Source: Candidatus Iainarchaeum sp.
Lineage (GTDB): Archaea > B1Sed10-29 > WALL01
Direction of reading: 5' to 3'
Assembly (NCBI GenBank): GCA_016939415.1
Contig: JAFGGZ010000054.1
Location: 1 to 48,306, forward strand
DNA length: 48,306 nucleotides
Shown here: one piece after another, positions 19,655-47,465 of the stretch
How positions within the stretch are numbered: position 1 is the first letter of the stretch
Layout of the letters: the number at the start of each line of letters is the position of its first letter
The notes under the pieces: generated by a model
The model's database searches: none
What the model was told of the DNA's origin: nothing
Seen by the model: only the letters and a program-made list of their open reading frames with translations
Position numbers and translations under genes: made by a program

Positions 19655-19951
19655 TCAATCGAACAACGCAATGCCTGCGGCGACGCCTGCTTCCTCTGCC
19701 TCGAAAGCGTTCTTCACGTTGTCGAACTCTTGGCCGGAAACCTCTTCCACGCCCTCGATCTCCAACTCCTTGCTGTGTTCCTCAAAAAACTCGTCAGAAG
19801 CGTTCACGTAAAGAAAGTACGCGTCCACGTTGATACCCATCGTCTTCGCATCCTGGAACTTGTATTCTATGCGAGCGAACGGGTCAGTCGCGATGACTGC
19901 CCTGACCTTGTGCTGGGCACTACCTAACACCTTGTATATCTTGACTGCCAT
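19655..19951 (-). CDS. hypothetical 98-aa protein with an acidic, ribosomal-stalk-like C-terminal tail
   Basis: ORF ends ...FEAEEAGVAAGIALFD. No family recognised for the N-terminal about 75 aa. Confidence 0.6.
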   Translation of the reverse strand: MAVKIYKVLGSAQHKVRAVIATDPFARIEYKFQDAKTMGINVDAYFLYVNASDEFFEEHSKELEIEGVEEVSGQEFDNVKNAFEAEEAGVAAGIALFD

Positions 19952-21154: not shown

Positions 21155-21499
21155 CTATTGCCGCTCCTCCTGACTCATCTCCTTGAACAGGTGGTACAGC
21201 TCGTTCCATGCAGCAAGGTACTGGTCCACAGCCTCTGCCCCAACCTCTGTCAGCTTGTACTCCTTCCTCCCGCCAACAACCCTTGCTGTCACAAGACCCT
21301 TCTTCTGCATGCGTCTCAGCAAAGGATAAAGACTGCCTGACTTGGCAGTCCACACGCCAGGCATCTTCCTCGTCAGCTTCTTCATCACGGCGTAACCATG
21401 CATCGGACCCTTCCGCAGGCTGAGCAGGACCAGGAACTCAAGGCGGCTTATCTTATGGGTGGGTTTGGACCTGACGAGGGATAGTATATCAAATTTCAT
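21155..21499 (-). CDS. PadR family transcriptional regulator
   Basis: LLSLRKGPMHGYAVMKKL...SGSLYPLLRRMQKKGLV...EYKLTEVG is the canonical PadR wHTH. Confidence 0.85.
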   Translation of the reverse strand: MKFDILSLVRSKPTHKISRLEFLVLLSLRKGPMHGYAVMKKLTRKMPGVWTAKSGSLYPLLRRMQKKGLVTARVVGGRKEYKLTEVGAEAVDQYLAAWNELYHLFKEMSQEERQ

Positions 21500-21642
21500 G
21501 GAAAAACCTACACATGTATTTTGTCTATATGTAGATACACTACACTTATAAATAGCCGATGGTTGGTATGGTAAATCACTAGAAACAACGCACCCACAGA
21601 GCGGGACGTGGTTTCATGTATTTCACAAGAGGTGTATCACCA

Positions 21643-21669
21643 ATGAAGCCAAAGGCAAAGAAGGAGTAA
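21643..21669 (+). CDS. 7-codon Lys-rich micro-ORF A1 (MKPKAKKE)
   Basis: AAGAGGTG SD-like site 9 nt upstream, overlapping the palindrome GGTGTATCACC. Duplicated in module B. Confidence 0.35.
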   Translation: MKPKAKKE

Positions 21670-21684
21670 TTTTCATCTGAAAAC

Positions 21685-21703
21685 GGGGGCGCTAGGCGCC
21701 CCC
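21685..21703 (+). other. 8-bp all-GC hairpin between micro-ORFs A1 and A2
   Basis: GGGGGCGC-TAG-GCGCCCCC, a perfect inverted repeat. Confidence 0.5.
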
Positions 21704-21726
21704 CAATCTTCTATTGAAGTAGTTAT

Positions 21727-21810
21727 ATGTTCGACGGCGACGATTGGGATGACACAGACGACGGCCAAAAAGAGTTGCCGAAAAGAAATGTGGTTATGTA
21801 TCTTTTTTAG
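21727..21810 (+). CDS. 27-aa acidic micro-ORF A2 (MFDGDDWDDTDDGQKELPKRNVVMYLF)
   Basis: Shares the D-[DN]-W-D-D-T-D-D core with B2. No clear SD. Confidence 0.3.
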   Translation: MFDGDDWDDTDDGQKELPKRNVVMYLF

Positions 21811-21926
21811 AGATAGGTACACCATATTTATAAATATCCCTTATTAGGTATCATATGCACGCCGGAAACACGCACTCCCGAAAGAGTGCATGATTCAGCG
21901 TAATCCTGAAAGAGGTGTGACACCAA

Positions 21927-21953
21927 ATGAAACCAGCAAAGAAGAAGAAGTAA
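21927..21953 (+). CDS. 7-codon Lys-rich micro-ORF B1 (MKPAKKKK)
   Basis: AAGAGGTG SD-like site overlapping the palindrome GGTGTGACACC. Paralogous to A1. Confidence 0.35.
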   Translation: MKPAKKKK

Positions 21954-22005
21954 TCCTAATAAACCACAAGAACAACAAACAAAGCCACCATCTTGAGGTG
22001 ATATC

Positions 22006-22083
22006 ATGACCAAGATGTACATTAAGAATTACGACGATGACGACGATGATGACAATTGGGACGACACAGACGATGATGACTAA
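22006..22083 (+). CDS. 25-aa poly-Asp micro-ORF B2 (MTKMYIKNYDDDDDDDNWDDTDDDD)
   Basis: GAGGTGA lies 4 nt upstream of the ATG. Followed by an A-run and a GC hairpin. Confidence 0.4.
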   Translation: MTKMYIKNYDDDDDDDNWDDTDDDD

Positions 22084-22095
22084 TAAAAAAAACAC

Positions 22096-22115
22096 GGCGG
22101 CCGGCAGAGGCCGCC
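22096..22115 (+). terminator. GC hairpin after micro-ORF B2
   Basis: GGCGGCC-GGCAGA-GGCCGCC, a 7-bp stem. Confidence 0.4.
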
Positions 22116-22170
22116 CATTCCCTCCTTCTGAAGAGAACGCTTTTATTCTCTGGCTCAGTAACATGCATGG

Positions 22171-23526
22171 ATGAAGAAAGGGTTATCTGAGATCATTGCA
22201 GTAGTAATACTCGTAGCAATAGCAGTGATCGGCTCTGTCGCAGCATACTACTGGCTCGGCGGCATGTTCTCAAAGCAGCCTGCTCCCAGGATACCGACAC
22301 CGCTTTCAGCAGTCCCTGCGGACGCGCACGCAGGATACCTGTACGTCATCCTCGTCAATTTGGGGAACCAGCAGATCCCGGTAGGCAGCACGCTCCTGGT
22401 CGCGGAGAATAGCGCTGAAGCAATCCTCTCCGAACCGATTCTACCCGGAAACCAGCAGCTGATCGTGTTCTGGGGGAGGTACGACAAGCAGGACGGGTAC
22501 AAGGGGTTCGAGAAGCAGGCAACCATCTACGAGCTGACAACAGGCTCTTCCTCCCCGCCGATCGCGCTCTCCACAGTCGAGGCGCACGAGGCAACAGCCT
22601 ACGAAGTCGGCAGCGCCGAAGGGTTCGAGCCAAGCATGAGCACGGTCGAAGACAACAACAATGTCTTGTGGATAGCGTTCACGTCAAACCAGTCCATCGG
22701 CAGCCACGACATATGGATAATGAACTCCACGGACGGCATGAACTGGAACACGCCGTACCAGATAGCGACGCAGGGTATTCTCGTGCAAGAGGACTCGCCT
22801 TACCTAGAGTACAACGGAACGTTCTACGTCCTGTACAGGTCAGCGTACGCAGGGAACAAGCTGCGGATGACAAAATCCAACAACGGCCAAACATGGACAA
22901 CGCCCGCACAGACGAACGTGCCGTGGACTGACCCGGACCCGAATGATTACGAGTACACGCCTGAGAACAAGCGAGGATTCTCATTCATCATCAATGACGA
23001 GGGACTGTTCTGGCTCGCGTACATAAACGGCAGCAGCGTGGTTGTTAGGAACTCGACAGACGCAGTGACGTGGAATCCGGAGATCACTGTGAACGACTCC
23101 GCCAGCCCCGGAAAAGTCTCGCTCATGCAAGACAATTCAGGGACGTACTGGGTTGCGTACGTCGGCGCTGACAACACGACGATAGAAGTAAGCAGCTCGG
23201 GCGACGCGCACTCGTGGAGCGCTTCGGCAATAGTCTCTGATGAGGACTTCGGCGAGGCATGCACTGGACCGGCAATCATCCAGGACAGCAACAGCAACTA
23301 TTTCCTGTTCACCGACCAGAGCGGCTCGTGCACAGACATGTTCGTGCAGGCATCGCGGGACGGAGTGCAGTGGAGCAGGGCTTCCTGGCTGCCGAACGCA
23401 ACCGCATCAGACCGCCACCCATCAGCAATGCAGGACTCTCAAGGCGTTTACCGCATGGCTTTCGCTGACGCTGACAGCATCCACGTGCGCAGCAGCACAG
23501 ACCCGATGATATGGGCCAGCACGTGA
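22171..23526 (+). CDS. BNR/Asp-box repeat (sialidase-like beta-propeller) protein with archaeal type IV pilin-like N-terminus
   Basis: MKKG/LSEIIAVVILVAIAVIG is a class III signal peptide pattern. There are at least six Asp-box-like repeats: NSTDGMNW, SNNGQTW, NSTDAVTW, SSSGDAHSW, ASRDGVQW, SSTDPMIW. Confidence 0.75.
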   Translation: MKKGLSEIIAVVILVAIAVIGSVAAYYWLGGMFSKQPAPRIPTPLSAVPADAHAGYLYVILVNLGNQQIPVGSTLLVAENSAEAILSEPILPGNQQLIVFWGRYDKQDGYKGFEKQATIYELTTGSSSPPIALSTVEAHEATAYEVGSAEGFEPSMSTVEDNNNVLWIAFTSNQSIGSHDIWIMNSTDGMNWNTPYQIATQGILVQEDSPYLEYNGTFYVLYRSAYAGNKLRMTKSNNGQTWTTPAQTNVPWTDPDPNDYEYTPENKRGFSFIINDEGLFWLAYINGSSVVVRNSTDAVTWNPEITVNDSASPGKVSLMQDNSGTYWVAYVGADNTTIEVSSSGDAHSWSASAIVSDEDFGEACTGPAIIQDSNSNYFLFTDQSGSCTDMFVQASRDGVQWSRASWLPNATASDRHPSAMQDSQGVYRMAFADADSIHVRSSTDPMIWAST

Positions 23527-23803: not shown

Positions 23804-24799
23804 ATGATGGGCAGCACAATTGTGGAAATCCGGTCGCTCACGAAGCGGTTCGGCAAGCTCACTGCAGTGGACGCAATGAACCTGGACATACAGGAGGGAG
23901 AGATATTCGGCTTGCTGGGGCCTAATGGCGCTGGGAAGACCACGACCATATCCATGCTGTCCACAACCCTCGCGCCCACCTCAGGGAAAGCGCTTGTCGC
24001 CAGACACGATGTCGTCAGGGAGCAGGATGCTGTGCGCGGCGCGATAGGTATAGTGTTCCAGGGCCAGTCACTCGACACGGAGCTGACGGCCTACGAAAAC
24101 CTCGATTTCCACGCGCGATTGTATGCAGTGGGGGATAAGGAAACGAGGATCAAGGAGATGCTGGAACTGGTCGGCCTGCACAAGAACCGCGATACCCTGG
24201 TCAAAAACTTTTCCGGAGGGATGAAGCGCAGGCTCGAGATCGCGAGAGGACTCCTGCACAAGCCGAAAGTCCTGTTCCTCGACGAGCCAACCTTGGGCTT
24301 GGATCCGCAGACACGCAGGCACATATGGGAATACGTGAAAAGGATAAACAGAGAGGATGGAGTAACCATCCTGCTGACAACCCATTACATGGAAGAAGCC
24401 GACTATCTCTGCGGCGGGGTGGCGATCATAGACTACGGAAGGATAATATCGTTGGATGAGCCGCAGAAGCTGAAGTCCCGGCTCGGCGAGACTGTTCTCG
24501 ACTTCCATGTGTCTGACGCTGACGCATTCTGCGGACTACTCAAGAAAAACAAGTGCAAGACAAAGAAGTCTGCTGTAGGCGGGCGCGTGCAGGTCGTGTC
24601 ATCTGACGGCGAGGAACTCCTGCCGAAGCTCGTGTCGCTAGCTGAGAGGAACGGCGTTCAGGTGAAGGGCGTCTCCATGCACTCGTCAACGCTGGAAGAC
24701 GTGTTCATGCAACTCACAGGGCGGACCATACGCGATGAGGCAGGCAACGAGAAGGAAACGCTTAGGCAGCGTTTCAGGGCCATGGAGGCGAAACGATGA
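23804..24799 (+). CDS. ABC transporter ATP-binding protein (ABC-2/DrrA-like)
   Basis: Walker A GPNGAGKTT, signature FSGGMKRRL, Walker B VLFLDEPT, plus a C-terminal regulatory extension. Confidence 0.9.
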   Translation: MMGSTIVEIRSLTKRFGKLTAVDAMNLDIQEGEIFGLLGPNGAGKTTTISMLSTTLAPTSGKALVARHDVVREQDAVRGAIGIVFQGQSLDTELTAYENLDFHARLYAVGDKETRIKEMLELVGLHKNRDTLVKNFSGGMKRRLEIARGLLHKPKVLFLDEPTLGLDPQTRRHIWEYVKRINREDGVTILLTTHYMEEADYLCGGVAIIDYGRIISLDEPQKLKSRLGETVLDFHVSDADAFCGLLKKNKCKTKKSAVGGRVQVVSSDGEELLPKLVSLAERNGVQVKGVSMHSSTLEDVFMQLTGRTIRDEAGNEKETLRQRFRAMEAKR

Positions 24800-25542
24800 G
24801 GGGAGTGTATACTATATGGCTGCGGGAGACGCTGAGGTTCGTCCGCAACAAGAGCAGGCTCGTCGGCAGCATGGGCATGCCGCTGTTCTTCCTGCTGTTC
24901 ATGGGGACTGGCATCGGATCAGTTATCGGGGACAGTGCCGGGGGAGGTTACACGCAGTTCATGGCGCCGGGCGTGCTCGGGATGATGCTGCTGTTCGGCT
25001 CCGTGTTCTCCGGCCTGAACGTCGTGTTCGACAAGCAGTTCGGCTTCATGAAGGAGATGCTTGTCGCGCCCATCTCGCGCGAGGCCATCGTCCTCGGCAA
25101 GGCCTTGGGCGGCGCTACTGCAGCCATGCTCCAGGCAGTGATCCTGCTCGCGCTCGTGTACGCGTTCGGCGTCCTGGAATTCAACGTTGTTTCCCTGGCA
25201 CTGCTCATTCCTGTAATGTTCCTCATTTCCGTGGGATTCGTGTGCGTGGGAGTGGCCTTCGCGAGCAAGCTGGATGATCCGCACGGGTTCCAGCTCATCA
25301 TGAACTTCCTCATCATGCCCTTGTTCTTCCTGTCGACAGCGTTCTTCCCGCTGGATAACCTGCCGCCATGGCTGAAGACGCTGTCCCTGCTCGACCCGCT
25401 GACGTACGGCGTGGACGCCATGAGAAGCATCCTCGTGGGGCAAGCAGCGTTCCCGCTATGGGTCGACGTGGCAGTGCTGGCCGGGTTCAGCACCCTCGCT
25501 GTATTAGTGGGGGCGCGCCTGTTCAAGGACATGAAACTGTAA
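24796..25542 (+). CDS. ABC-2 type transporter permease
   Basis: ATGA overlap with the ATPase gene. Six TM helices, typical ABC-2 length and pattern. Confidence 0.85.
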   Translation: MRGVYTIWLRETLRFVRNKSRLVGSMGMPLFFLLFMGTGIGSVIGDSAGGGYTQFMAPGVLGMMLLFGSVFSGLNVVFDKQFGFMKEMLVAPISREAIVLGKALGGATAAMLQAVILLALVYAFGVLEFNVVSLALLIPVMFLISVGFVCVGVAFASKLDDPHGFQLIMNFLIMPLFFLSTAFFPLDNLPPWLKTLSLLDPLTYGVDAMRSILVGQAAFPLWVDVAVLAGFSTLAVLVGARLFKDMKL

Positions 25543-42858: not shown

Positions 42859-45657
42859 TCATCTCCCGCTTTTCTCGACTATCTCGCGCTCTTCCTTCGT
42901 GAGGCCGTACAAGCCATAGACCAACCCGTCAATCTTGGCATCGGTTTCCGCGATTTCTTTCTCCAACCGCTTCCGCTCATCCGTCTGCTTGTCACCCATC
43001 CCAACCAAGCGCTTGTTCAAAGAGAGCATTTTCTTGGCCAGCTTCTCCAGCTCAGGCGACTCCTTCTTCGCTATCGGCACGTTCCCGAAGTACTTCCATA
43101 TCAATTGGTACCCGCCGCGGATTTGCGTGCAGGTGTTTGAGATGAGGAACCAACCCAGCTTCGAGTTTAGGATAGCCAAGAGCTTCAAGTCTTCAGTCGG
43201 AATGAAGAAATTCGCGTTATTGGCGAAATAACCGTCAGTATCAAGAGTGAAGCGTGGTCCAGTAGTTATGGCGCCGTAAATCAGCTTGGGTTTTTTGAAT
43301 TTGTCGTAATAGTCACAAGCCCTTAGCTCATACCAATGCTCGCCTTTATCCCATCTTTTTTCAAGCTCCGGTTTGAACTGCTTGAGCCAGTTATACACTG
43401 CGGGATAGCGTTGGATGTCAACACCGATTTTCGTTAAAATTATGTACTTCTCATCAAAATGAATCACGTACGGACGGACTTCCTTACCCATCAAAAATGG
43501 ATAGATTATTTCTTTTGATGCCGAATCCTCTTTAGTCAGTTGATTCTTTGTTTCTTTACTGATTACAAACGCTTTCGTAAGACCTGTCTTTATACCAAAA
43601 TACGCTTTGTCTGAGATATATCTACTTAACGGCAAACTATCTTTTCTTGTTTTTTCTAATACCTTTGTTACTCCCTCCGGCTGGAAGTTCCATCCGCTTT
43701 TGTCTAGGTTCTTTTGGTTCATGGTGAACGAGTTCTTTTTCACGTATTCCTCTAACGAGTCGAAGTTGAGGTCCCGCACTAGGCACACTTTTGTCTTGGG
43801 GTTCTGCTTTTTCTTGTTGCGGATTACGATTATGCAGGGGTAGGTCGTGGCGTCCTCAAAGACTTTGAGGTCCCCGAAGTCGATGAACTCTTCCACCCAG
43901 TAGTTGCCAAGGAACTCGCGCAGGCGCTCGCCGTAGCCTGCCTTGAGCCACTTGTTGGAAACAATCATGCCGAAGTAACCCCCTTCTTTGAGGAGCTTCA
44001 GCTCGCGCTCGAAGAAGTAGACGAACAAGTCGGCCATGCTATGGTACACTTCGTACCCCTTCTCAAGGAAAGGCTTTATGGGTAGGAGCTCTTCCTGCCT
44101 CACGTAAGGCGGGTTCCCGATGACCACGTCGAAGCCGCCGTCTTTCATCACGTTTTTGAACTCTTTGTTCCAGTCGAAGGCCTTGTCGCCCGCTACTTTG
44201 GGGTCGTCTATGAGGGAGTTGCCGCACTTGATGCTGCTCTCCAGCGACGGCAGCAGGTGCCTCTTCTCAGCCATTTTCAGCAAGAGGTTCAGTTGCGCGA
44301 TTTCAACGGCCTTCTCGTCCAGGTCGACGCCGTGGATGTTGTTCTTCAGAATCTCGATTTTCTTCGTGATGCGCGCGCCGTCGCCCCCGAGCTTGGCCTG
44401 GGCGTAATCCTTGTCGTTCTTCGCGTAGTACTCGTCCAGCACGTCAAACGCCTTTATCAAGAAAGAGCCTGAGCCGCATGCGGGGTCCAGCACGCGAATT
44501 TTGTCCACGTCCGCAGGCTTCTTCTTCTTGATTAGCTCGCCCAGCGTGTTCTTGACGATGTAGTCCACGATGTACGTGGGCGTGTAGTAGATGCCCTGCT
44601 CCTTGCGGTGCGACTTGCCTTCCGAGAGTTTCGCGCGCTTGGCAGTGGTCTGCAGGACAGTGCCCAGGTACTGTTCGTAAATGTTGCCGAGCACGTCAGA
44701 ATCGATAAGGGCGAAGTCGTAGCGCACGTTCCCGTCCGTGGAGTAGTAAAGGGCGTCGATGACACCGTCAAGGATCCTGTCGCTGACCTTGACCTTGTCA
44801 GCCTCGTGCTCCTCGTCGGCCGTTCTCCCGAAGAGCTTGCTGTCGTAGTGCTCGCGGTAATAATCAAAGATTTCGTTGAGCTCGCGGGACAGGCTCCTGC
44901 CCTTCTCGCGGTGCGCGTTCAGCGCCTCTTTCAGCTTGTTGCCCTCTATCTGCCTGTCCTCGCACGCGCGGATGAAAATCAATCGGTCGATCACGCGCTG
45001 GACTATCTCGTCAATCTCTTCCTGCAAGTACTTGTCCGGGTGCGCCTTCTTGATGTCCTTGGACAACGCCTCGCGCCACACAAGAAGCTCCTTGAGCAGT
45101 AGCTCGGCAACGCTTTTCCTCGGCGTCCTTTTCCCGACGGTGCTCGCGTAGTCGCCCAAAGCGTTCTTGTCGAAGCTTTCCTTGCTGAGGAGCCAGAGCT
45201 TGTCGAACTCGTTGAGGAACTGGGTGTACCTTAGCTCGAAGACTTGGTTGCGCCAGATGTTCGCTTCGTTCCACTCGCAGTTGAACACCTTCAAGCCCTC
45301 GAAGTCCGTGAGCACCGCCCACGTGACTCCTTTGTTGAACCCGTAGGAAATGGCTTGCTTGGCGAACTCTGTGTCGTCGAGGTTTACTTTCGCGCCCTTT
45401 GCCTCCACGAAGAACCGTATCACGCCGCCGAGCCGGAACGCGTAGTCCGCTCTTCCGCGGAGGACGCGCTGTTCCTTGATTACTTCGTCGTCCGTGCGCT
45501 CGTTGCGCATGTCCCAGCCTAATGCCTCGAACAAGGGCTCTATGAACTCGTTTTTGGTGCGCTCCTCTGAGTAGGTCTTGAGCTTGCCCTCGTCCATGAC
45601 CCTCTGGAACTTGTCCACGAGGCCCTGGACCCTCTGCTGCGCCGCTTCACTAGACAA
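42859..45657 (-). CDS. Type IIG restriction-modification enzyme (PD-ExK nuclease + gamma-class N6-adenine methyltransferase + TRD)
   Basis: N-terminal GRADYAF...FFVEAK (HsdR_N/Mrr-like), VLDPACGSGSFL (motif I), VIGNPPYV (motif IV), and a TaqI_C-like YFGIKTGLTKAFVI specificity domain. 932 aa. Confidence 0.85.
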   Translation of the reverse strand: MSSEAAQQRVQGLVDKFQRVMDEGKLKTYSEERTKNEFIEPLFEALGWDMRNERTDDEVIKEQRVLRGRADYAFRLGGVIRFFVEAKGAKVNLDDTEFAKQAISYGFNKGVTWAVLTDFEGLKVFNCEWNEANIWRNQVFELRYTQFLNEFDKLWLLSKESFDKNALGDYASTVGKRTPRKSVAELLLKELLVWREALSKDIKKAHPDKYLQEEIDEIVQRVIDRLIFIRACEDRQIEGNKLKEALNAHREKGRSLSRELNEIFDYYREHYDSKLFGRTADEEHEADKVKVSDRILDGVIDALYYSTDGNVRYDFALIDSDVLGNIYEQYLGTVLQTTAKRAKLSEGKSHRKEQGIYYTPTYIVDYIVKNTLGELIKKKKPADVDKIRVLDPACGSGSFLIKAFDVLDEYYAKNDKDYAQAKLGGDGARITKKIEILKNNIHGVDLDEKAVEIAQLNLLLKMAEKRHLLPSLESSIKCGNSLIDDPKVAGDKAFDWNKEFKNVMKDGGFDVVIGNPPYVRQEELLPIKPFLEKGYEVYHSMADLFVYFFERELKLLKEGGYFGMIVSNKWLKAGYGERLREFLGNYWVEEFIDFGDLKVFEDATTYPCIIVIRNKKKQNPKTKVCLVRDLNFDSLEEYVKKNSFTMNQKNLDKSGWNFQPEGVTKVLEKTRKDSLPLSRYISDKAYFGIKTGLTKAFVISKETKNQLTKEDSASKEIIYPFLMGKEVRPYVIHFDEKYIILTKIGVDIQRYPAVYNWLKQFKPELEKRWDKGEHWYELRACDYYDKFKKPKLIYGAITTGPRFTLDTDGYFANNANFFIPTEDLKLLAILNSKLGWFLISNTCTQIRGGYQLIWKYFGNVPIAKKESPELEKLAKKMLSLNKRLVGMGDKQTDERKRLEKEIAETDAKIDGLVYGLYGLTKEEREIVEKSGR

Positions 45658-46298: not shown

Positions 46299-47465
46299 TT
46301 AATGATTCTCTTTCTGGAGCGCGGCCAACCGCTCCATTAATAGTTGCTTCACGTGGTCGTCCTTCATGACGTACTCCATGAACTCATCAGCCTCCTTCCT
46401 CTTGTCGTCTGCCTCAAGCGCTGTTGCGAGGTCGAGCGCGCTGCCGCAACGCGAGCAATACTTGCTAGCAGGAGAATTAGCCTCCTTGCAACGTGGGCAA
46501 GCCCTAAGCACAAACCGCTCCTTCTTGCTGTCCTCGGGTGGCTTCACGCCATAAATGCCTAGCAAGGCGTCGTCCACGTCCCTACCGGACAGGTGGACGT
46601 AAATGCTCGCCATTTCAGAGGATTGCGCCCAGCCGAAGTATTCCTTCATTTGGGCTTCTGTGAGCTTGTTTGCAAGCGACGTTGCCCTCGCGTGCCTGAA
46701 ACTATGAGGATTAACCCTTTTTGTAATGCCTGCTTTCTTAGCCAGCTTTCGAAGTAGCACGTTGATTGTTGAATAATTGACGCTTGAGCCGTCCAGCGAG
46801 CAGAACAAGTGCCCCTTGCTTGTGGGGTGGTTGTCGAGCCACAACGCGATGGCCGGAGCCGCGGAAATCACGCGCACGCGGCGGTCGCCGGTCTTCCCGG
46901 TCACGCGGAGAATGCCGCCGTGCTCGTCAAACTTCACGTTCTTGACCTGCAGTGTCAGGAGTTCGCTTATTCGGCATCCGCTTTCGTAAAGCGTGAGGAC
47001 GAAGGCTTTGTCGCGCGGGTTCGTGCACGCCGTTACCAAGGCGCGGATGTCTTCCTCGGTCAGCAATTCTTCGGGCAGCTTGTGGCTCCCGTTTTTCATG
47101 CTCGTCTTGACCCACGAAACCATCACGGGGTACTCGCCGTTGTTCAGCCACTTGTAGAACGACTTCAAAATGACTTTGTAGTCGTGCTTCGTCCACTCCT
47201 TGAAACCCGTGGCCTCAAGCCACGAGAGCAGTTGAATAACGTCGCCCTTGGCTGCCTCGTTGAAGGGTTTTCCGAGTTGGGAGCCGAGCCTGCTCAGCGT
47301 GCTTAGGTATTTGAGGCAGCGCTTTTCCGAGAGGCCGCGAGCGATGGCTTCGGCGTGGAACTCGAGAATTAGCTTTTTGTTCGCCTCACACAGGTCAGGC
47401 GATTGCCTAACCCGCTCCAGGCAATTCGCCAGCTTCGTATTCGTGTTGTAAGGGTCGGTCCTCAT
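46299..47465 (-). CDS. tyrosine recombinase / integrase with C-terminal zinc ribbon
   Basis: N-terminal SAM-like domain, catalytic ...ESGCRISELL..., HSFRHARATSL, ASIYVHLS (Tyr), then CPRCKEANSPASKYCSRCG. A TATA-like box (TCTATAAATAG) lies about 25 nt upstream of the ATG. Confidence 0.9.
   Translation of the reverse strand: MRTDPYNTNTKLANCLERVRQSPDLCEANKKLILEFHAEAIARGLSEKRCLKYLSTLSRLGSQLGKPFNEAAKGDVIQLLSWLEATGFKEWTKHDYKVILKSFYKWLNNGEYPVMVSWVKTSMKNGSHKLPEELLTEEDIRALVTACTNPRDKAFVLTLYESGCRISELLTLQVKNVKFDEHGGILRVTGKTGDRRVRVISAAPAIALWLDNHPTSKGHLFCSLDGSSVNYSTINVLLRKLAKKAGITKRVNPHSFRHARATSLANKLTEAQMKEYFGWAQSSEMASIYVHLSGRDVDDALLGIYGVKPPEDSKKERFVLRACPRCKEANSPASKYCSRCGSALDLATALEADDKRKEADEFMEYVMKDDHVKQLLMERLAALQKENH

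Follow-up and report, generated by a model that had tools for sequence, protein, structure and literature searches.

A tandemly duplicated unit of oppositely charged micro-ORFs beside a PadR gene in Candidatus Iainarchaeum, with putative PadR control

In a 48,306-nucleotide contig of Candidatus Iainarchaeum sp. (JAFGGZ010000054.1, assembly GCA_016939415.1; this whole stretch is hereafter the window), a PadR-family regulator gene on the minus strand and a pilin-like gene are separated by two tandem modules of ~283 nt. Each module carries a promoter, a leader and two very short open reading frames (micro-ORFs), the first rich in Lys and the second in Asp and Glu. On the sequence evidence, the arrangement is, on balance, probably a PadR-controlled micro-operon, tandemly duplicated in the window, that makes a polycationic and a polyanionic micropeptide acting in trans. 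Comparison between loci shows conservation of the unit, coding signatures, a stand-alone architecture and operator-like dyads. That the peptides act on nucleic acids or basic proteins, possibly with feedback on PadR, is the favoured account of their role.

Conservation and coding signatures of the micro-ORF unit

The window regulator has the features of the short PadR-s2 type: a PF03551 winged helix (Pfam, E=1.7e-18, residues 24-91 of 114 amino acids (aa)), a length of ~110 aa and one C-terminal helix. Its profile aligns residues 12-106 to short PadR-s2 structures of the PDB, including 5h20, 4esb and LmrR (3f8b). A protein search returns a handful of close homologues, 55-66% identical. Profile searches place the clade at 22 clusters at 90% identity (5.8 billion sequences) and at three representatives at 50% identity (1.84 billion sequences; P0007 with 199 bits, P0022 with 110 and P0023 with 106), below which scores drop to generic PadR proteins under 95 bits; this steep drop marks the clade as small and sharply bounded. 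A close PadR is found in only two of 185,579 species-representative genomes, L007, a ‘Nanobdellati archaeon’ (DPANN), and L008, which is the same as L004. The metagenome scan with the PadR profile gave, among the matches listed, only distant PadR proteins (40% identity or less) and no added loci, and NCBIfam and PADLOC searches of PadR and its neighbours gave generic PadR matches only, with no link to a defence system. So far the element is confined to a very small group of uncultured archaea, tentatively assigned to DPANN.

The unit was compared in 12 independent loci (the window, L002, L004, L005, L007, L167, L169, L170, L172, L173, L177 and L179), with PadR identities of 49-66% across the clade; L175 is the same locus type as L007 in another assembly. 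A charged micro-ORF unit lies divergent from PadR in 12/12 of these loci, with a common layout of a (T/A)TAAATA box, a leader and micro-ORFs led by Shine-Dalgarno (SD) sites. Both ORFs are present in nine loci, the basic ORF only in two (L179, L007) and the acidic ORF only in one, L177 (Table 1). Two tandem modules occur in L005 as well as in the window, and the comparison shows the duplication to be independent in the two lineages. Of the genes around the unit PadR alone is conserved throughout, and this PadR clade in turn has no conserved partner but the unit. Comparison of the loci shows the micro-ORFs travelling with PadR and not with any downstream gene.

Table 1 Predicted products of the charged micro-ORFs in homologous loci
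Locus	Basic peptide	Acidic peptide	Remark
L002	MAKKKGKKKKEKK	MFCKKFRDEEDDEDYEEYEDDDE	
L004	MAAKKKAVKKTATKTKAKTKPKAKAKPAKKAKKKK	MDRMYDEDWDENDED	
L170	MAAKKKAATKTATKAKAKTKAKPAKKKAKKKK	MYRMYDEDEDWEDEEYD	
L005 module a	MVNKKTKKKTKPTKTKKKTKPTKTKKKR	MFGPWDDDDDDEGDYDY	
L005 module b	MAKKKKK	MFGPEWDDDEGDEDWY	
L167	MAKNKKGATRILLNMEVVVC	MLKWAEDDTDEDNQEDNSDDDW	the two ORFs overlap
L169	MAKKKKAKEKSKKKK	MFAQKWDDDEEEEEDEEY	
L172	MAKKKKKSE	MEVKWNSDWDDDDDKDDEDF	
L173	MGKKKKPAK	MVGFKNYDRDRDGDDDDDWDEDDDW	
L007 (and L175)	MAPRRKPKPKPKDE		basic only
L179	MAGKKKKKESEKSV		basic only
L177		MPKNEFDDDEDDEWDDDEDEDEDEDE	acidic only; most distant PadR

Of the 25 micro-ORFs, 24 have an SD site 4-18 nt upstream, whereas only 7.5% of all ATG/GTG codons in the same loci do (P about 3e-26); window copy A supplies the exception, its acidic ORF. 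Start and stop codons tightly flank the charged runs. Synonymous codons are mixed within them (Lys AAG 70 and AAA 35; Asp GAC 59 and GAT 37; Glu GAA 28 and GAG 13), which indicates that the amino-acid composition persists through changes in the DNA. Between loci, the nucleotide sequence, the codons chosen and the ORF length vary, and SD site, start, stop and amino-acid composition are kept. In L004 and L170, the only closely related pair of loci, the basic ORFs differ by an aligned gap of 9 nt and the acidic ORFs by 6 nt, the multiples of three for which an earlier note on this DNA had suggested looking; the aligned gaps in leader, spacer and terminator measure 1, 2, 4 and 1 nt. The 28-aa basic ORF of L005 module a (3884-3800, minus strand) contains an in-frame 27-nt tandem repeat (TKKKTKPTK twice), which shows how basic ORFs change length.

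Scanning for SD-led basic micro-ORFs with an SD-led acidic one no more than 120 nt downstream picks out the PadR-proximal site in the nine close loci with both ORFs; the two basic-only loci and the acidic-only locus are unable to score as pairs. In unrelated control loci of 1.33 Mb and 2.21 Mb, both strands, the scan finds 0 pairs, and SD-led acidic micro-ORFs are absent from both sets. Negative controls were 78 other loci from the genome-collection scan, and the 2.2-Mb control consists of loci from the viral-contig scan for the operator-like motif. Upstream in-frame extensions proposed by the gene finder (33 aa in L002, 58 aa in L170, 41 aa in L179) are not kept between loci and were rejected. 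The comparison shows that both ORFs behave as coding sequences, and it suggests that they are translated in vivo. Among the options raised in the earlier note, the paired basic/acidic peptide system is supported by this comparison, SD site, start, stop and composition being kept across PadR homologues only 49-66% identical.

Two weak readings deny the ORFs this role. In the first, which is very unlikely, the functional product would be a PadR-controlled small RNA of ~250 nt with purine-rich tracts, and the ORFs would be incidental. In its favour, each module combines a predicted 5' hairpin with a purine-rich, unstructured body and a terminator, and the leader of L004 and L170 is conserved to the same degree as the ORFs. 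The strong, correctly spaced SD sites, the bracketing of charged runs by start and stop codons, the varying codon choice under a kept amino-acid composition and the ORF length differences in multiples of three argue against it, as do a nucleotide sequence unconserved between loci and the lack of an Rfam match. In the second, which is barely credible, the real genes would be small hydrophobic peptides antisense to the charged ORFs. The reverse complements of Asp, Glu and Lys codons are Val, Ile, Phe and Leu codons, and the antisense frame is open across most charged runs, where gene-calling programs may report it (for example an 89-aa ORF at 21895-22164, minus strand). However, the scan finds no SD site on any antisense ORF and no usable start for most, stops interrupt that frame for four charged ORFs (L167, L172, L179), and it is the sense strand that bears the promoter, the SD sites and the T-run terminators.

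Promoter, operator-like dyads and transcription unit

The modules of the window align in register with a spacing of 282-284 nt, rising to 300 nt at the acidic-ORF core (repeat finder and pairwise alignment), in agreement with the tandem duplication first noticed there. They are 63-88% identical in aligned blocks, and the conserved blocks correspond to the promoter, the SD site with the basic ORF, and the D-W-D-D-T-D-D core. The Logan contig L001 is identical to the window over the module region. The TATA-like boxes, the acidic ORFs, the GAGGTGA ahead of the second of them and the two GC hairpins are all present as the earlier note had described (Table 2). Its Lys-rich ORFs are correctly placed but have eight sense codons instead of seven, and its leader of ~90 nt is right as the distance from TATA box to start codon, whereas the transcribed leader is probably ~65 nt.

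Table 2 Features of the module region in the window
Feature	Position	Strand	Remark
PadR-family regulator gene, 114 aa	21155-21499	minus	short PadR-s2 type
Control region with two overlapping PadR-operator-like dyads	21514-21545		between PadR start and module A TATA box
Dyad 1, ATGT-N9-ATAT	21514-21530		one mismatch
Dyad 2, ATGT-N9-ACAC	21529-21545		one mismatch
Module A TATA box, CTTATAAATA	21545-21554	plus	
Module A 5' untranslated region (UTR), predicted	21577-21642	plus	start from usual archaeal TATA-to-start spacing
Module A 5'-proximal leader hairpin, predicted fold	about 21582-21615	plus	followed by unstructured linker
Module A SD site, AAGAGGTG	21627-21634	plus	
Basic micro-ORF A, MKPKAKKE	21643-21669	plus	
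Module A inter-ORF hairpin	21685-21703	plus	8-bp, all-GC
Acidic micro-ORF A, MFDGDDWDDTDDGQKELPKRNVVMYLF	21727-21810	plus	no SD site; non-acidic C-terminal extension
T6 run at 3' end of acidic micro-ORF A	21803-21808	plus	probable terminator of module A
Module B promoter	21797-21836	plus	degenerate copies of both dyads and TATA box
Module B TATA box, TTTATAAATA	21827-21836	plus	
Module B 5'-proximal leader hairpin	21859-21901	plus	z = -2.9 vs shuffles
Module B SD site, AAGAGGTG	21910-21917	plus	
Basic micro-ORF B, MKPAKKKK	21927-21953	plus	
SD site of acidic micro-ORF B, GAGGTGA	21995-22001	plus	
Acidic micro-ORF B, MTKMYIKNYDDDDDDDNWDDTDDDD	22006-22083	plus	
A8 run, then 7-bp GC hairpin (22096-22115)	22085-22115		end of module B
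Gene with archaeal pilin N-terminus and BNR domain	22171-23526		

A TATA-anchored alignment reveals a (T/A)TAAATA box in 14/14 modules of the 12 loci and, directly 5' of it, a conserved block of the form CCTACATATATGTAT-T-rich-TATGTAGATACNCTACAT. The block comprises two ATGT-N9-ACAT dyads, which in most homologous loci are offset by 15 bp. The proximal one borders the TATA box, at the expected position of the TFB-recognition element (BRE), and the distal dyad lies on the side of the PadR start. The dyads are exact in six modules and have one mismatch in most others; in the window, those of copy A have one mismatch each and those of copy B are degenerate. Of the seven exact ATGT-N9-ACAT sites in 104 kb of the close loci, six are at these promoters. 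The 48-kb window holds no further operator-like sites beyond the modules, and the viral-contig scan for the operator-like motif yielded chance matches only. PadR proteins of both subfamilies use an ATGT/ACAT operator with a spacer of 8-10 nt (PMC3506622), and an ATGT-N8-10-ACAT site is what stands at these promoters. The conserved dyads strengthen the suggestion that PadR binds 21500-21560. Because a dyad overlaps the BRE position, repression by PadR, of the unit and also of its own gene, is probable. It would work by occluding the BRE and TATA box; activation is the less likely sign.

Directly upstream of the PadR start, AAACCTAC is kept in the window (21500-21512) and in homologous loci. On the PadR strand it reads GTAGGTTT, 5-9 nt ahead of the ATG, and is probably the SD site of the PadR gene itself; if so, the PadR transcript would have a short leader and may start within or beside the dyads.

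The unit ends by itself. In most loci the last ORF is succeeded by an oligo-T run, often accompanied by a GC hairpin, and in L004 and L170 a new TATA box stands between the terminator of the unit and the next gene. The downstream genes differ: the window and L169 have a pilin-like gene, L002 has HU, L004, L170 and L177 have a gene for a secreted 255-aa protein along with archease and RtcB, L173 has HIT, and there may be none at all. Terminators and differing downstream genes together describe a stand-alone operon, not a leader of the surface protein. The pilin-like gene of the window also has its own TATA-like box ~27 nt 5' of its ATG. In L002 the HU (Bac_DNA_binding) gene (3701-3429, minus strand) starts 9 nt past the acidic micro-ORF with its own SD site, which would make this unit tricistronic; it is the only locus with a further gene joined, and HU is found near the unit at no other locus. 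Units that carry a single ORF, basic in two loci and acidic in one, show that either can serve as the sole cargo, and hence that neither is merely a leader for the other ORF or for a downstream gene.

At the end of window module B, the A8 run with its GC hairpin scores in a pattern scan as an intrinsic terminator on the minus strand (hairpin, then U run), and no minus-strand gene ends there; on the plus strand it may serve as a terminator. In L007 (2330-2275, minus strand) and L175, the basic ORF MAPRRKPKPKPKDE is followed by a small hydrophobic ORF, MKMISTLILILFLFLYCY, in place of an acidic one.

A 5' hairpin is predicted in 14/14 modules. Its sequence is unrelated between them, an A-rich linker separates it from the SD site, and in L173 it is weak; no more than about half of the 14 leaders fold better than shuffled sequences. 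In these models the hairpin looks like a stabilising stem rather than a riboswitch. Inter-ORF hairpins like that of the window occur in L002, L004, L170 and L172 and are absent in L005, L167, L169 and L173. No conserved alternative pairings were seen among sequences too few to align for covariation (the leaders are unalignable, and L004/L170 is the sole close pair). Rfam gives no match at the gathering score over the whole window, and at E<=1 within 21450-22200 only isrD on the minus strand, at a chance-level 18 bits (gathering 37). GGTG..CACC mini-palindromes enclose both window AAGAGGTG sites, as the earlier note had described; among relatives they recur only in L005 and L179, and the palindrome was rejected as a conserved translational switch.

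The main rival to a trans-acting peptide pair places the function in cis and is unlikely: the ORFs would be translated as sensors, with peptides that are not the product. Slowing on poly-lysine and destabilisation of the ribosome by N-terminal Asp/Glu, sensitive to Mg2+ and polycations, would report the ionic state or charged tRNA, and the progress of the ribosome would in turn determine what becomes of the mRNA, whether the second ORF is translated or whether read-through occurs. Consistent with this, the peptide sequences are poorly conserved, with only composition and the fact of being translated kept; the basic ORFs are as short as classical leader peptides, and about half of the loci have a GC hairpin after the basic ORF. 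N-terminal D/E-rich sequences carry the highest risk of translation abortion, which bulky residues ahead of them counteract (bioRxiv 10.1101/2021.02.02.429294), and the acidic ORFs open with MF, MY or W. The polycysteine short ORFs that act as attenuators in mycobacteria also provide a precedent for attenuators of a homopolymer type (bioRxiv 10.1101/834739). Yet no conserved regulated gene follows the unit, which terminators end ahead of differing genes; either ORF occurs as sole cargo; the inter-ORF hairpin is missing from the four loci named above; and no conserved alternative pairing was found. The near-invariant Trp with its acidic run suggests recognition of the peptide, though contact of Trp with the ribosomal tunnel would also fit.

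On the same grounds, two further options of the earlier note are not supported. A Lys-codon leader-peptide attenuator would agree with the enrichment for single amino acids (Lys 40-85% of the basic ORFs, Asp plus Glu 40-70% of the acidic ORFs), but in place of a conserved related operon there are differing downstream genes, set apart by terminators and separate promoters, and there are single-ORF units. A structured RNA controlling the surface protein is disfavoured by the terminators, the varying downstream genes, the TATA-like box of the pilin-like gene and the Rfam result.

Peptide properties and proposed mechanism

The acidic peptides are 15-27 aa long with a net charge of -8 to -11, the exception being window copy A at -5. 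Trp is present in 11/12 and is followed by an acidic run (W-[DE]); the peptides hold 2-4 aromatic residues and mostly start with MF or MY, and their C-termini vary (D, W, Y, F, E). The basic peptides range from 7 to 35 aa and from +3 to +18 in charge. Judged from these sequences, the acidic peptide is the more constrained partner. Pfam gives no match for ten of the peptides.

In the proposed mechanism, the short PadR-s2 gene and the unit would diverge from a control region of ~45 bp, in which the two dyads abut the TATA box. A strong archaeal TATA promoter would give a transcript whose 5' UTR of ~60 nt opens with a hairpin; a strong SD site and the Lys-rich micro-ORF would then be followed by a second SD site, the Asp/Glu-rich micro-ORF and an oligo-T terminator. 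PadR would bind the dyads, probably repressing both the unit and its own gene. The output of this switch would be two oppositely charged, disordered micropeptides acting in trans. The polycation would probably bind nucleic acid in the manner of histone H1 or HupB tails, and the acidic aromatic peptide, much as DSS1/Sem1 or DNA-mimic proteins do, would probably dock on basic protein surfaces, candidates being the polycation or a DNA-binding protein, PadR among them.

Several observations weigh against this mechanism. In L004 and L170 the ORFs are conserved no better than leader and promoter. The duplication in the window may be decaying in part, since the acidic ORF of copy A has no SD site and copy B has a degenerate operator. 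Basic peptides of 7-9 residues (MKPAKKKK, MAKKKKK) are very short for a trans-acting product, and the five-fold variation in basic length is more suggestive of selection for composition, or for translation as such, than of selection for a folded product. The net charges of the partners show no correlation (rho = -0.02), contrary to what simple stoichiometric neutralisation would predict. A connection with nucleoid proteins comes from one locus, L002, with its co-transcribed HU.

In another account, distinctly unlikely, the acidic Trp peptide or both peptides would be ligands of PadR itself, in a self-contained peptide switch of an undescribed kind. The acidic Trp peptide would be a DNA-mimicking anti-repressor that titrates PadR or nucleoid proteins, a minimal prokaryotic analogue of DSS1/Sem1, and the polylysine would be its antagonist or a nucleic-acid-condensing partner. 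PadR and the unit being each other's only conserved partner speaks for this account, as does the sharp separation of the clade (199 bits, 110, then <95), which is expected of a co-evolving pair. The arrangement is analogous to that of regulators divergent from signalling-peptide genes, and the lack of a further operator-like site in the 48-kb window also agrees. The window PadR is rich in Lys and Arg. The Trp of its C-terminal helix (W98) does not vary within the clade, and its counterpart in LmrR forms the ligand site (PMC3506622). However, a C-terminal Trp is general in PadR-s2 proteins, including ones without a ligand pore (PMC3506622), a circuit without other output would be odd, and the operator scan covered 48 kb of the genome. 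If it were true, the switch would be the smallest known polycation/polyanion regulatory pair, lying wholly below gene-calling cutoffs.

Returning to the micro-operon with trans-acting products, translation of both micro-ORFs would establish a conserved gene pair of 7-35 codons that is invisible to annotation pipelines; oppositely charged micropeptides would be a new type of PadR output and a natural polycation/polyanion peptide pair in a prokaryote. The case also illustrates that comparative context can validate ORFs far below calling cutoffs. Nanobdellati (DPANN), in which the window is tentatively placed, have small genomes with much unexplained coding capacity. The reach of the finding is limited by the tiny PadR clade, with its 22 clusters in some 15 billion proteins, and its uncultured organisms.

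Some neighbouring features were noted. A DrrA-type ABC ATPase and an ABC-2 permease directly adjoin PadR in L179 (2023-3758), and genes of the same two types lie at 23804-25542 of the window, 2.3 kb downstream of the modules; an association with an exporter may thus be conserved, though loose. At 19655-19951 (minus strand) of the window, a 98-aa ORF with no Pfam, NCBIfam or PADLOC match, kept beside the HIT gene in L001, has a C-terminus (..EAEEAGVAAGIALFD) resembling the acidic/hydrophobic tail of archaeal and eukaryotic ribosomal stalk proteins. The segment 41000-47500 is low in GC (0.42 vs about 0.56) and, with its 3' flank, contains an Eco57I/MmeI-like restriction-modification methylase (42859-45657, minus strand) and a tyrosine integrase with a zinc ribbon (46299-47465, minus strand); it is probably an integrated mobile element.

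Relation to known systems

The regulator side most resembles LmrR/lmrCD of Lactococcus lactis and bcPadR1/BC4207 of Bacillus cereus, which share the ~110-aa winged helix-turn-helix (wHTH) with a single C-terminal helix and conserved Trp, a regulator gene adjoining its target, and an ATGT/ACAT dyad at the promoter that makes autoregulation likely. Their targets are a transporter or a membrane protein, whereas the target in the window would be micro-ORFs of 7-35 aa behind an archaeal TATA/BRE promoter, with a PadR of a tiny separate clade.

Rgg/SHP, PrgX/prgQ and other RRNPP systems encode their regulators divergently from signalling-peptide genes. The likeness lies in a regulator and a micro-ORF below gene-calling cutoffs that diverge from a shared control region. 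The window regulator, however, is a PadR wHTH and not a TPR receptor, the peptides are highly charged with no signal-like segment instead of hydrophobic secreted propeptides, no Opp-type importer is linked, and the organisms are archaeal.

The leader and sensor ORFs (hisL and trpL, the mycobacterial polycysteine ORFs, MgtL and the D/E-run sensors) are likewise very short and dominated by one or two amino acids; as in the window, they are SD-led, some with a hairpin after, and D/E runs lie near the N-terminus. They differ in that the window unit lacks a regulated downstream gene, is followed by terminators, and has ORFs that occur alone.

Two families were considered and rejected. Type II toxin-antitoxin pairs join, in one transcript, a DNA-binding antitoxin that controls its own expression and a folded toxin of a known family; the products here are both of low complexity, 7-35 aa long and without a Pfam match, and the regulator is a separate, divergent PadR. 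LysW/ArgW carriers have a zinc-ribbon core, a C-terminal EDWGE ending in Glu, and linked LysX-type ATP-grasp genes; the peptides here have no Cys-rich core and their C-termini vary, and a RimK-type ATP-grasp gene is near only one locus, L002, 3.4 kb away.

Among charged proteins, the eukaryotic DNA mimic DSS1/Sem1 (PF05160) is likewise small, disordered and strongly acidic with Trp/Phe anchors, and its motif EDNWDDD resembles the DDNWDD of window copy B. Homology was rejected (hhalign probability 2%, with only WDD aligned, and no PF05160 match at E<=10); the peptides here are one third its length and archaeal, and the likeness is one of analogy only. Histone H1 with prothymosin-alpha forms a disordered polycation-polyanion pair, and the C-terminal tail of mycobacterial HupB is a DNA-binding tail rich in Lys, Ala and Pro; in composition (Lys/Ala/Pro/Thr) the longer basic peptides, MAAKKKAVKKTATKTKAKTKPKAKAKPAKKAKKKK for example, match H1 or HupB tails. 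The opposite charges and the co-transcribed HU of L002 recall these systems, but the peptides here are free-standing, some with only 7-9 residues, their charges are unmatched, and the linkage to HU concerns one locus. A literature search on PadR in DPANN, charged small ORFs in archaea, and polylysine or polyaspartate microproteins found no precedent. As none of the families considered accommodates it, the micro-ORF pair appears to be a new kind of element.

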